64,000 bases of DNA. Source: Rickettsiales bacterium. GTDB lineage: Bacteria; Pseudomonadota; Alphaproteobacteria; Rickettsiales; JABSSG01. A program made the position numbers and the translations under genes. The stretch covers positions 2,198 through 66,197 of the forward strand of contig JAVKEN010000012.1 of NCBI GenBank assembly GCA_040221415.1, read 5' to 3'. Positions within the stretch are counted from its first letter, which is position 1, and each line of letters opens with the position of its first letter. Shown one piece after another: positions 54,138 through 60,059 of the stretch. The notes under the pieces were generated by a model, which was not told the origin of the DNA, did not search any database, and saw only the letters and a list, made by a program, of their open reading frames with translations.

Positions 54138-57100
54138 GTGGCATCTGATAGTTATGAGGTATTTCAGTCAGATTTCTTTGCAGGGTCTGGTCTTTTATAT
54201 GTTCCATTGGAAGATATATATGAATATTATCAAGAAAATAACAGTACAAACAGTACGTTAGTATATTCGTACGTTATAGAGACGACTCCTATTGATACGT
54301 GGTTAGATCCTGATGTTGGTAAGAAAACAGTTCTAAAGGAACTGACATATAAAGACTCTATACCTCAAGAGTATCATTGCGAATCTGATCATGAAGGACT
54401 TATATTAGTTAGTACAGAATTCCCAGTTAACCTAGATGGACAATTAAGCTCTTCTTGCGCTCTCAATCTTACTATTATCAGCCATTTAGCAATTAATGTT
54501 GATAATGCTACCTTTTCAGGATTCTCACAGGTGAACCTTGTTTCTGGTGTTACAGAAGTGAGTAAGTATGATTATACCGTTAATGGTCAGATAGCCAGAC
54601 CAATAAAGGTTGATTATTTGTATGCTGATTCTGTAACTATAAATTCAGGCAAAGTCTCTTTTAATAAGAAGATATATCTTTCGAGAGATCTTACTGTAGA
54701 TTCAAATAATCATCATGTTGAAGTATCACAATGTGGAAGAGTATTTGTTGGAGGTGATTTCAGTGCTAGTAACTTTTTCCATTTCATGAATCTTGGCGTA
54801 ATAGATGTCCAGGGTTCAGCTGCTTTAGAAGGGACAAGTGCATTTAACTTTAATATTATGAAAGTTTTTGAAGATTTGAACTTTCAAGGAGAGCAATTTC
54901 ATAATTTAAAATTTTTACATGTTTTAGGTAAGGCAGATTATGAAGTTAAATACACTTTAGTAAATACAGAAAGGTCTTTCATGCATTATGGAGGTTTGTC
55001 AGTCAATAGTGATTCAGAAGACGGTGTTAGAAAATTCGTCAATATAGGTACAATAGAAATTGAAGGTAGCCCTTCGTTTATTAATGCTGAGAAAATTGAT
55101 CTTCTTTCAACTGAATATAAGAAGAATTTTAAGCAGCCATTGCCCCGTATGAGTTTTAATGTACCAGGCAGCCATGGACAATGCAGCGGTAAAATGGATT
55201 CATTTGCTATCGAGCCAGAGCCTTCAAAGTTTATTAGCAACTCAGATTTAACTTTTAAATTTAACAAATGGTTTCAAACATACAGCTTGCTGTATTCACA
55301 AAAAGATATTTATCTCAATGGTCCTAATGCTCAAGTCGAGTTAGTGAGTTATAATCTATGGGTCAGTATTTTTTGTCACAAAGCTGTTGTGCAAAAATAT
55401 TTCGATGAATATGTGAGTCCAAATATTAAATATGAGGAATTTAAAAGAGGTCTACATTATAATCCTGAGGAAGGAAATTTGGTAAGAACTACAGATGATT
55501 ACCCTTTTCCTGCTAAGAACCCACAAATCTATGCTGAAGGAAATGTTGAGTTTAACATTGGAGAATTAATATCGGGTGTTGGATTTCCAATAAATAATAA
55601 ATATGATTCAATTTTTTATATACGCTACGATCCGCCAGAAAGAATAAAAGAAATAGCTAATGGAGACAAAATTCCTGATGAAATTCAAACTAGTTTGAAT
55701 AACAATAAAGCACTGGCTTTAATACCAAAACATCATTATTCACAGGAAAAGCCACAGTACGGAATTGCTATATTATCTCAAGGAGATTCAGATAATACTT
55801 TTGTGTTTAATCCAATTGATATTACTGATTTATATAAAAGTGCGTATAGAGGTTTTTTTCGTGAGCATTTTGAAGAAAATCATCAAGGGAACTCTCTAGT
55901 TTCATTAGATGCGGATCTAATACCTACTCAATATCAAGTTTCGATATATAACTCAAAAAATTATAATGAACCCTCTATAGGGGATTATTTTTACTATAAC
56001 TATGTTTATAAAAGTGAAATCTTCAAGTCTTTAGGAGTCATTATAGGTCAAGACCAAATCAATCTTTTCGATTCACTATATAAGAATTGTATAGATGCTT
56101 CTAAAGTGTTGGGCTTTAATTTACCGATAAATAACATAGATCAACTTGATATTAATAAGCTTTGGTTTCCTGTTGCCTGCCCAACATACACTACAGAATG
56201 TCCTAGAGGCATAGAAAAGTGTATAAATGTGCCTTTATATTTCAATGATAGAATCTTACAAGATTATGTTTCAGATCACACGATTTATGCTGGCAACGGC
56301 ATCTCAATAGATGTTGCCGGTAATATGTTAACCAATTTTTATGACTCTATTAAATCAAATGGGTCGATAAAAATAAATATTGGCAAGTCAGCTTTAGTTA
56401 TGGGAACAATTGAAGGAGGCCAGATAGATATTAATGTAGGAGAGAATTATCTTAACTTGGCTACTATAGATTCTGTAGGTGATATCTCTTTAAAAGCTTT
56501 TAATATGGTGCTAAGTGAGAAAGTAAGAAGTGGTGGAGATATTAGCATTCAAGCAATTAACAATTTAGCTTTACAGACAATAGTTAGTTTATACAAAACA
56601 TCCACTCTGAGTTCTCATACTGTTAGCTCAAATATAATGTCAGAATCTTCCTTGAATGCTAAAGGAGATATCAATCTTTTAGCTGGTGGTGGTATAGTGA
56701 TAACAGGAACTGAAATAATAGGAGACTCAGTTTATATCAAAGCAGATGGAGAATTATATATTGTACCTGCGGAACTTTATAATGAAGTGACAACGTGGGG
56801 TAAGAAATTTTACAGCAGTCATAAGTCTCTTCAATTGCATAGGTCGTTAATTAGCTCAGAATCAGGTGACATAACTTTGGATATTCAAGGTAAGGCTTAT
56901 TTGAGCGGGGTTATGACGAATAGTAATCAGGCAATAGTTGCAACCACTAATGATATAGAAGTTTTAAATCCTAGTGAGTGGGAATCTCAAATAGTAATAG
57001 TAAAAAAGAAAGGGTTTTTAGGTTCTGCTATAGGCGCCTCTCAAAGAACAAACAGTTCTTATGAGGCTACTCTTTTAGGAAGTACATACAAGGCTGTTGA

Positions 57101-60059: not shown

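Follow-up and report, generated by a model that had tools for sequence, protein, structure and literature searches.

The giant gene and its C-terminal cassettes

A giant gene encoding 1973 amino acids, together with several smaller genes, is carried by contig JAVKEN010000012.1 of a Rickettsiales bacterium (assembly GCA_040221415.1). Judged from homology and gene layout, the locus is very probably a polymorphic toxin-immunity system descended from filamentous haemagglutinin (FHA) and CdiA. The whole stretch of DNA analysed (64,000 nucleotides, positions 2,198 to 66,197 of the contig) is referred to as the window. Its GC content is about 34%; coordinates are those of the window unless another locus is named. 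The features of the toxin locus are the following.

53219-53246, forward strand: strong hairpin resembling an intrinsic terminator (10-bp stem with six GC pairs, then a T run)
53368-54048, forward strand: open reading frame (ORF) of 226 amino acids without signal peptide and without family match in Pfam or NCBIfam
54138-60059, forward strand: giant putative polymorphic toxin gene, 1973 amino acids, GTG start with AGGAG 5 nt upstream
54138-55976, forward strand: variable N-terminal region of the giant protein, residues 1-613, strand-rich with an acidic start (from homology and composition)
55977-59072, forward strand: conserved family core, residues ~614-1645 (from alignments with relatives)
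58902-59069, forward strand: pre-toxin junction 'ANRDV' - 'IDPIKFYYTNRDN' - 'GETLFVDTGLG', residues 1589-1644 (from alignments and its duplication)
59073-59786, forward strand: N-terminal part of the variable C-terminal region, residues 1645-1883 (from alignment and repeats)
59787-60056, forward strand: C-terminal toxin domain, residues 1884-1973 (~90 amino acids), all-alpha (from homology and AlphaFold2)
60056-60301, forward strand: candidate cognate immunity gene, 81 amino acids, with a 4-nt overlap with the toxin stop and homologues beside the same domain elsewhere
60312-60440, forward strand: homology stub, a copy of main-gene codons ~1596-1645 (nt 58925-59065; from DNA repeat alignment)
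60404-61585, forward strand: orphan toxin cassette, an ORF of 393 amino acids with a TTG start (from C-terminal homology)
61582-62121, forward strand: orphan immunity candidate, 179 amino acids, overlapping the orphan stop and weakly SCO4402-family-like

The ORF coordinates confirm an earlier, sequence-only reading of this DNA, which described a protein of 1973 amino acids and an 81-amino-acid ORF overlapping its stop codon. The N-terminus of the protein is MASDSYEVFQSDFFAGSG. An identical entry is found at NCBI as 'MAG: hypothetical protein RLN62_02745 [Rickettsiales bacterium]' (MAG, metagenome-assembled genome); it lies on a 66-kb contig.

The toxin domain has four invariant residues, His1893, His1922, Pro1929 and Trp1951; Lys1925 is nearly invariant. 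An AlphaFold2 model built from a 38-sequence alignment is confidently all-alpha (predicted local distance difference test, pLDDT, 91). A profile of the domain found no PDB sequence below E 0.1. Tox-EDA39C, which is described as having 'two conserved histidines' (Zhang 2012), was rejected as a match; it is described as alpha+beta, whereas the window domain is all-alpha. The domain is presumably toxic. What it would attack is a matter of speculation; the His/His/Lys set would suit a metal-independent nuclease.

The same toxin domain is reused on unrelated trafficking scaffolds. It stands at the C-terminus of an unannotated TPR protein on pSn, the F-type plasmid of Simkania negevensis (42% identity), and it forms the end of a PT-HINT toxin encoded within an array of Rhs cassettes that plasmids of Leptospira weilii carry (37% identity). 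At least 87 of the 150 best-scoring HMMER matches listed (50%-identity representatives) contain it. Among 29 longer carriers Pfam recognises RHS repeats and PT-TG, PT-HINT, Phage_Mu_F and TPR domains; it is therefore a travelling polymorphic-toxin domain.

The gene directly downstream co-varies with the toxin domain. Homologues of the 81-amino-acid ORF directly follow the same domain at five loci from different phyla, counting the window. They have 79 amino acids in Simkania and 72 in Leptospira. At one metagenomic locus (L020) the homologue has 78 amino acids (44% identity, E 8e-15) and overlaps the toxin stop codon, while at an Rhs toxin locus (L019) it is a tandem-repeat protein of 310 amino acids. 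Since this pairing is kept across scaffolds and phyla, there is strong genomic evidence for a toxin-immunity pair in which the 81-amino-acid ORF is the matching immunity protein. The sequence-only reading had proposed a modular C-terminal toxin with an overlapping immunity-like ORF, following the logic of contact-dependent inhibition (CDI); this is borne out by the scaffold, the exchangeable toxin and the cognate immunity ORF.

On pSn (NC_015710) the toxin gene is missing from the plasmid's gene table. The 501-amino-acid TPR-toxin ORF (70-1575 of locus L003) is unannotated, and the 79-amino-acid immunity homologue that follows it is annotated as WP_013935110.

Conservation of the main gene ends with the pre-toxin junction. 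This stretch is duplicated in front of the orphan cassette and is therefore probably where recombination takes place. Residues 1645-1883, which follow it, hold a helical segment, a hydrophobic Cys-bracketed motif 'ALPALAGAARGVFVAVRGCMQNPACV' that is common with the Bandiella homologue described below, and an acidic linker. After the hydrophobic pre-toxin segment, and ahead of the toxin domain, come four tandem 14-residue repeats with the core (Q/K)(I/V)LxTP (nt 59553-59702), which may serve as a flexible linker or as a site of processing.

A second toxin/immunity cassette, with homology to the main gene, stands behind the first; the sequence-only reading had missed it. Its stub of ~130 nt bears a 1-nt indel and a stop codon in the 5' part; the main gene reads 'QYLDKNYDIDPIKFYYTNRDNSKLRLPSSLSEFAETFGETLFVDTGLG' where the stub copy reads '...IDPIKFYYTNRDNGKQKLPGSFEELQESLGEALFVETGLS'. 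The last ~105 residues of the orphan ORF match the C-termini of RHS-core proteins of Streptomyces plasmids and of other plasmid proteins (33-42% identity, E to 4e-11). The 179-amino-acid ORF matches NF047838 with E 9e-11, which is below the family cutoff. The same layout of giant gene, immunity gene, orphan (there with a Cytotoxic domain) and small ORF is found beside the relative P0010 (locus L021). The arrangement corresponds to the classic orphan toxin/immunity genes of CDI and Rhs loci, and the stub would define the recombination junction of the family.

The conserved core and its relatives

The core holds beta-helix-like repeats, a Cys-rich segment 'WFPVACPTYTTECPRGIEKC' at residues 676-695 and an invariant 'NGAMIA' motif at residues 1489-1494. 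The 'FHA-type beta-helix repeats' of the sequence-only reading hold by way of homologues: Fil_haemagg_2 scores above cutoff in the homologous region of 17 of the 23 relatives, and the stretch aligned with it comprises window residues ~1275-1440 (nt ~57960-58457). They do not hold for the window protein taken by itself, in which no family model detects the repeats.

A word-indexed homology search matched the full protein with itself only; the core gave no match and the C-terminal domain one. Neither megablast against plasmids nor comparison of the conserved-core profile with PDB sequences gave a match. Tblastn against plasmids found a 'hemagglutinin repeat-containing protein' of Candidatus Bandiella woodruffii, which aligns with residues 767-1787 (BLASTP E 2e-73). 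When 185,579 species genomes were scanned with a pattern based on the Bandiella alignment, seven loci emerged. Their sources are without exception Rickettsiales or MAGs of uncultured alphaproteobacteria: Bandiella, Anadelfobacter, Aquarickettsia, a MAG of Midichloriaceae, one that bears the label 'Rickettsia typhi', and two uncultured alphaproteobacteria. Residues 774-1973, used as query in an exhaustive HMMER search, gave 615 matches, including ~25 full-length proteins of 1.6-2.3 thousand amino acids. The best match, P0003, has 39% identity (E 3e-172).

The ~25 giant proteins that share the core come nearly all from Rickettsiales or Midichloriaceae-type genomes. Their core is kept at 25-39% identity across deep divergence. 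The N-terminal 600-1650 amino acids differ between almost all members, and the C-termini also differ. Pfam identifies CdiA-CT RNase A (RNAse_A_bac), WHH/Colicin-DNase, Cytotoxic and PT-TG domains at the C-termini of relatives; a constant core scaffold is combined with alternative C-terminal toxins among the homologues. Some relatives also have LysM or GTA-TIM/GH113 modules N-terminally.

Several details of individual relatives were recorded. On a Midichloriaceae plasmid (L010), the N-terminal region of the toxin contains a GTA_TIM/GH113 glycoside-hydrolase-like domain (E 2.6e-61). A second GTA_TIM/GH113 protein, whose N-terminal stretch is hydrophobic by eye, lies directly upstream of this toxin; the two genes occupy 6081-7661 and 8138-13813. 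These modules hint at a role of the family's variable N-terminal regions in binding or cutting glycans of the cell envelope. The four tandem ORFs of 395-403 amino acids that follow P0012 on a 1.3-Mb contig (L022, 16629-21916) have no Pfam matches; either orphan cassettes or immunity paralogues may be arrayed there.

The B. woodruffii plasmid (NZ_CP110821, locus L001) carries a group II intron at 7693-9477, recognised by Rfam D1-D4 and D5/D6 and by ltrA; a second copy lies at 23757-25541. The end of the first intron falls within what is annotated as the 5' end of the gene for the Bandiella homologue. The annotated start of this homologue is therefore an artefact, and the true N-terminus has been disrupted or displaced.

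Taken as a toxin-immunity system of FHA/CdiA descent, the locus is built as follows. A lineage-variable, beta-rich N-terminal region leads into a filamentous core of ~1000 amino acids, homologous to the Fil_haemagg_2 (FHA-2-type) part of the exoproteins of two-partner secretion (TPS). The core is followed by a short conserved pre-toxin junction and an exchangeable C-terminal region ending in the all-alpha toxin of ~90 amino acids. The product of the 81-amino-acid ORF would protect the producer. The orphan pair, silent in its present position, could recombine into the main gene through the ~130-nt stub and so swap the warhead, and the system would travel as cargo on a conjugative plasmid. The role is most plausibly antagonism among co-resident Rickettsiales, or against other bacteria in a shared host, and incidentally plasmid retention. 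Endosymbiont plasmids would then carry weapons against other bacteria. The sequence comparisons show the architecture, the family membership, the pairing of toxin and immunity genes, the orphan cassette and, against distant relatives, the loss of signal peptide and TPS domain; toxicity, target and, most of all, export are inferred.

Several points weigh against this interpretation. Pfam, NCBIfam and PDB phmmer searches with the full protein gave zero matches, so the affiliation with FHA is transitive. The toxin domain matches no Pfam family. Foldseek of the toxin model against the PDB returned only generic helical hairpins (E >2). Lastly, an obligate intracellular lifestyle offers few chances for contact-dependent competition, which keeps a host-directed or addiction role among the candidates.

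The plasmid, the N-terminus and export

Pfam scans covered almost every window ORF of at least 100 amino acids. They found a complete F-type type IV secretion system (T4SS), consisting of TraL, E, K, B, C, W, U, TrbC, N, F, H, G, TraD (the coupling protein) and TraI (the relaxase), as well as ParA/ParB and a Rep protein with a DnaA_N domain. The element is therefore a conjugative plasmid of the Rickettsiales type. No POTRA/ShlB, Rhs, PAAR/VgrG, type VI secretion system (T6SS) or type VII secretion system (T7SS) gene was found in the 64-kb window, nor was an ABC/HlyD pair. The sequence-only reading is thus correct in placing a giant toxin on a T4SS plasmid without nearby TpsB, Rhs, PAAR/VgrG, T6SS or T7SS genes.

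The hairpin at 53219-53246 is probably the upstream boundary of the toxin operon, and the 226-amino-acid ORF (53368-54048) is probably co-transcribed with the toxin gene. If the hairpin marks the start, the operon would comprise this ORF, the giant gene and the genes downstream. Tblastn found no match to the 226-amino-acid ORF at the relatives' loci, so it is not conserved beside them. It was also considered as a detached N-terminus of the toxin; this was ruled out, because its frame differs, a signal peptide is missing and it is not homologous to the N-termini of the family.

The rest of the window carries a varied cargo. A perfect GC-rich palindrome, GTTCGCC(A/G)CGGCGAAC, occurs in three copies on the reverse strand (50513-50528, 50895-50910 and 51271-51286). 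The copies are ~380 nt apart, in a gene-poor stretch from parB to the toxin region. Possible identities are parS sites, iterons or a repeat like the Rickettsia palindromic elements. An OTT_1508-like deaminase domain, which is a toxin/effector domain typical of Orientia and Rickettsia, is found in a 378-amino-acid ORF at 17155-18288 on the reverse strand (Pfam E 2.5e-6). An ankyrin-repeat ORF (16620-17171) adjoins it. A RhuM-Fic fusion gene lies at 20631-21608 on the forward strand; a gene of the same two-domain architecture is found beside the relative P0006 on another F-type T4SS element (locus L012, 24507-25499), which suggests a cargo set shared among these Rickettsiales mobile elements.

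Two further ORFs, at 14840-16468 (forward strand, 542 amino acids) and 2240-3655 (reverse strand, 471 amino acids), have no Pfam match and no signal peptide. Ser, Thr and Gln are abundant in the 542-amino-acid protein, a possible secreted effector or pore-former. Other cargo comprises a 1140-amino-acid protein with a marginal Lipase_3 match (8184-11603, forward strand), a 588-amino-acid FG-GAP repeat protein (5236-6999, reverse strand) and a rhomboid protease beside a MauJ-domain protein (12546-14653, reverse strand).

The N-terminus of the giant protein does not look like that of a TpsA exoprotein. Residues 1-613 are homologous only to P0003 (E 2.6e-27) and, weakly, to a few other members of the clade. 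The first 20 residues contain no Lys or Arg and three Asp or Glu, and there is no hydrophobic core; the best 12-residue Kyte-Doolittle mean is 1.54. By composition and hydrophobicity there is no N-terminal Sec signal peptide as in TpsA, and no 19-residue window in the whole protein has a mean Kyte-Doolittle value >1.6 as expected of a transmembrane-like segment. A motif scan of the 1973 residues found no NPNL, NPNGI, VENN, YD, PAAR or RTX motif. Pfam, including PF05860, matched zero families in the whole protein, and the Pfam model Haemagg_act matched 0 of the 23 relatives. Seven sampled members of the clade (P0003-6, P0009, P0010 and P0012) likewise lack a signal peptide and have uniformly acidic N-termini. 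The sequence-only reading, which saw no signal peptide and no TPS domain, is therefore correct, and this absence extends to the whole clade. That reading had allowed for a TPS domain and Sec signal appearing after revision of the start codon; the ORF begins at the first start codon past an in-frame stop, and no upstream in-frame start is possible.

More distant relatives provide the contrast. Five of these with signal peptides were compared (P0027, P0043, P0044, P0046 and P0084). The 12-residue hydrophobicity mean is 2.2-2.5 in four of them and 1.68 in P0043; basic residues are present in the signal peptides of four, P0027 having none. These proteins bear 'GVSxNxF' and 'NPxGI' motifs. As a positive control, a profile of their N-termini matches the TPS domains of FhaB (1RWR, E 2.9e-6) and HpmA (E 5.6e-4). 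The same test with the N-termini of the window clade (P0001, P0003-6) found no TPS structure in the PDB. The clade appears to descend from TpsA proteins and to have lost both the signal peptide and a functional TPS domain.

A decayed TPS domain was considered for the N-terminus. Alignment by hhalign with the TPS-positive profile gave probabilities of 2-8%, which are not significant. The lone weak segment, 'NLTIISHLAINV', sits exactly at the NPNGI position of the TPS profile (E 0.004, probability 8%). With a small custom database, jackhmmer linked the window N-terminus weakly to P0027 (E 0.003, first inclusion). Direct alignment of the profiles gave only generic beta-helix similarity, and the decayed-TPS interpretation is treated as unproven. 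AlphaFold2, run with the single sequence of residues 1-766, gave no usable model (pLDDT 33).

Twelve neighbourhoods were compared for genes that might serve export: the window and 11 relatives, drawn from six genome loci with flanks and nine metagenomic contigs in partly overlapping sets. No TpsB-type gene is present in the 12. F-type T4SS genes are adjacent in two, the window and P0006; the latter adjoins TraD-TraI and has the same RhuM-Fic cargo gene. The other copies lie on a plasmid typed as non-mobilizable (Bandiella), on a Rep3/ParAB plasmid or in chromosomal contexts. No conserved accessory gene was found beside family members in the relatives' neighbourhoods. With tra genes at two of 12 loci and no such accessory gene, the toxin looks like cargo of mobile elements and not like a substrate dedicated to the conjugation machine on the same plasmid.

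Secretion signals for T4SSs and type I secretion systems (T1SSs) are normally C-terminal. In the window protein the toxin cassette ends the chain, with nothing conserved after it that could act as a translocation domain, and no XVIPCD-like conserved C-terminal domain is present. It has no GGxGxD repeat of the kind found in RTX-type T1SS substrates, and as noted the window has no ABC/HlyD genes. Since Rhs, MuF and HINT toxins use the same exchangeable C-terminal cassette, a determinant of export is to be expected in the conserved core or the acidic N-termini. The T4SS-dependent delivery suggested by the sequence-only reading is unsupported, with tra genes near only two of 12 loci, and a C-terminal signal as in T4SS and T1SS substrates fits the exchangeable C-terminus poorly.

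Export is the most conjectural step of the scheme. It seems that the protein cannot use Sec and TpsB, so that the clade would need either a one-step, Sec-independent route or release by lysis. Export by the rvh or another T4SS, or by a T1SS, ranks first when these are taken together, at somewhat below an even chance. Release by lysis or in vesicles ranks second and is rather improbable. An unrecognised partner of the Omp85 type ranks third and no export at all fourth; both are distinctly unlikely. A tentative generalisation, rather less likely than not, is that the whole Rickettsiales clade of FHA/CdiA descent, without Sec signal, TPS domain or TpsB, is exported by a T4SS (rvh or F-type) or an unrecognised machine that reads the core or the acidic N-terminus. 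If true, contact-dependent toxins would have a further, new mode of delivery.

In one alternative, the protein is an antibacterial or host-directed effector that is recognised by TraD/VirD4 and injected into neighbours by the F-type T4SS of the plasmid or by the chromosomal rvh P-type T4SS. An rvh T4SS or T1SS has been proposed for such toxins (PMC11077975). The gene lies on a plasmid with a complete F-type T4SS, P0006 adjoins TraD-TraI on a similar element, P0005 is two genes away from a TrbL/VirB6-like gene, and the missing Sec signal demands a one-step system. Bacteria-killing T4SSs reportedly provide a precedent. This alternative is nevertheless unlikely: tra genes are missing from ten of the 12 neighbourhoods, the Bandiella plasmid is typed as non-mobilizable and several copies are chromosomal, while known signals are C-terminal and the C-terminus here is neither XVIPCD-like nor confined to this scaffold. 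F-type systems are not known to deliver toxins.

It is also doubtful that the protein is not an exported weapon at all, being instead a decaying TpsA relic kept as a plasmid addiction module or a host-directed effector freed by lysis. Loss of the export signals would fit this, as would the company of the locus, which lies among Phd antitoxin, Fic, OTT_1508 deaminase and ankyrin cargo genes. Decay is evident in some copies: one on a Bandiella sp. chromosome is broken into at least four ORFs, that of B. woodruffii abuts the group II intron, and pseudogenised haemagglutinin-like toxins are noted in PMC11077975. However, the 5.9-kb ORF of the window is intact, as are the ~25 full-length relatives. 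Conservation of the ~1000-amino-acid core indicates that the scaffold, and not the toxin tip alone, is under selection, and diversified warheads with orphan cassettes are hallmarks of arms-race selection.

An ordinary two-partner CdiA, with TpsB encoded at a distant locus of the genome and with a TPS domain that has diverged strongly and is exported by a non-classical signal, is very improbable: the distant relatives are genuine TpsA proteins that even so have no adjacent TpsB, making an unlinked partner possible in these lineages, and 'NLTIISHLAINV' falls at the NPNGI position, but against this stand the acidic, signal-less N-termini of the window protein and seven clade members, the lack of an upstream start, of NPNL/NPNGI, of any TPS structure found by the clade profile and of Haemagg_act among the relatives, and the reported absence of CdiB from all Rickettsiales genomes (PMC11077975).

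Comparison with known systems

The closest described systems are the large haemagglutinin-like toxins of Rickettsiales, including Midichloriaceae, which bear interchangeable CDI-like or Rhs-like warhead and antidote modules (Verhoeve et al. 2022, PMC9111745; 2024, PMC11077975). Some of them bear LysM domains (PMC9111745; PMC11077975). Their secretion pathways have not been characterised, and an rvh T4SS or a T1SS is considered possible (PMC9111745; PMC11077975). The delivery route was thus overstated as 'undescribed' in the sequence-only reading: as Verhoeve et al. describe CdiB-less toxins, the delivery puzzle is already a published question and not a new one. The window system shares with these toxins a giant haemagglutinin-like scaffold, swappable warheads with adjacent antidotes, a location in the mobilome and the lack of a signal peptide. 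The Rickettsiales genomes are reported to lack CdiB, and no gene for it was found in the window. The window system differs in its warhead. The warheads in those papers are CRCT-1 or CdiA-CT-like (cd20695); that of the window is a separate all-alpha domain with its own immunity family of ~80 amino acids.

Four aspects are new here. The first is the precise anatomy of an intact member, with its core, junction, warhead, immunity gene and orphan boundaries. The second is the contrast, backed by a positive control, between relatives with signal peptide and TPS domain and the TPS-less Rickettsiales clade. This contrast makes the question of how the toxin leaves the cell experimentally approachable. 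The third is the orphan stub, and the fourth a widespread toxin/immunity pair without family assignment.

CdiA/CdiB systems of CDI (type Vb; Aoki 2010 and Ruhe 2018, cited in PMC11077975) resemble the window locus in having an FHA-type scaffold with, to judge from the relatives of the window protein, a Fil_haemagg_2 region ahead of the junction. In both, a polymorphic C-terminal toxin is followed by an immunity gene, and orphan cassettes have homology stubs. One relative of the window protein even has a bona fide CdiA-CT RNase A domain. Unlike CdiA, the window protein has no Sec/ESPR signal, TPS domain or VENN motif (its junction is 'ANRDV...LFVDTGLG'), and no cdiB was found in the window. There is also no detectable FHA-1 array, and the N-terminal third is variable and not conserved.

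Rhs/YD-repeat, PT-HINT, PT-TG and MuF toxins (Zhang et al. 2012, PMC3482391) differ from the window protein in their trafficking scaffold, which is wholly different; the window scaffold is without YD repeats, PAAR, HINT and MuF. They have in common with it the C-terminal toxin domain, the immunity family and the cassette logic. The toxin/immunity pair is found on Rhs, HINT, PT-TG, MuF and TPR scaffolds as well as on the FHA-like core of the Rickettsiales.

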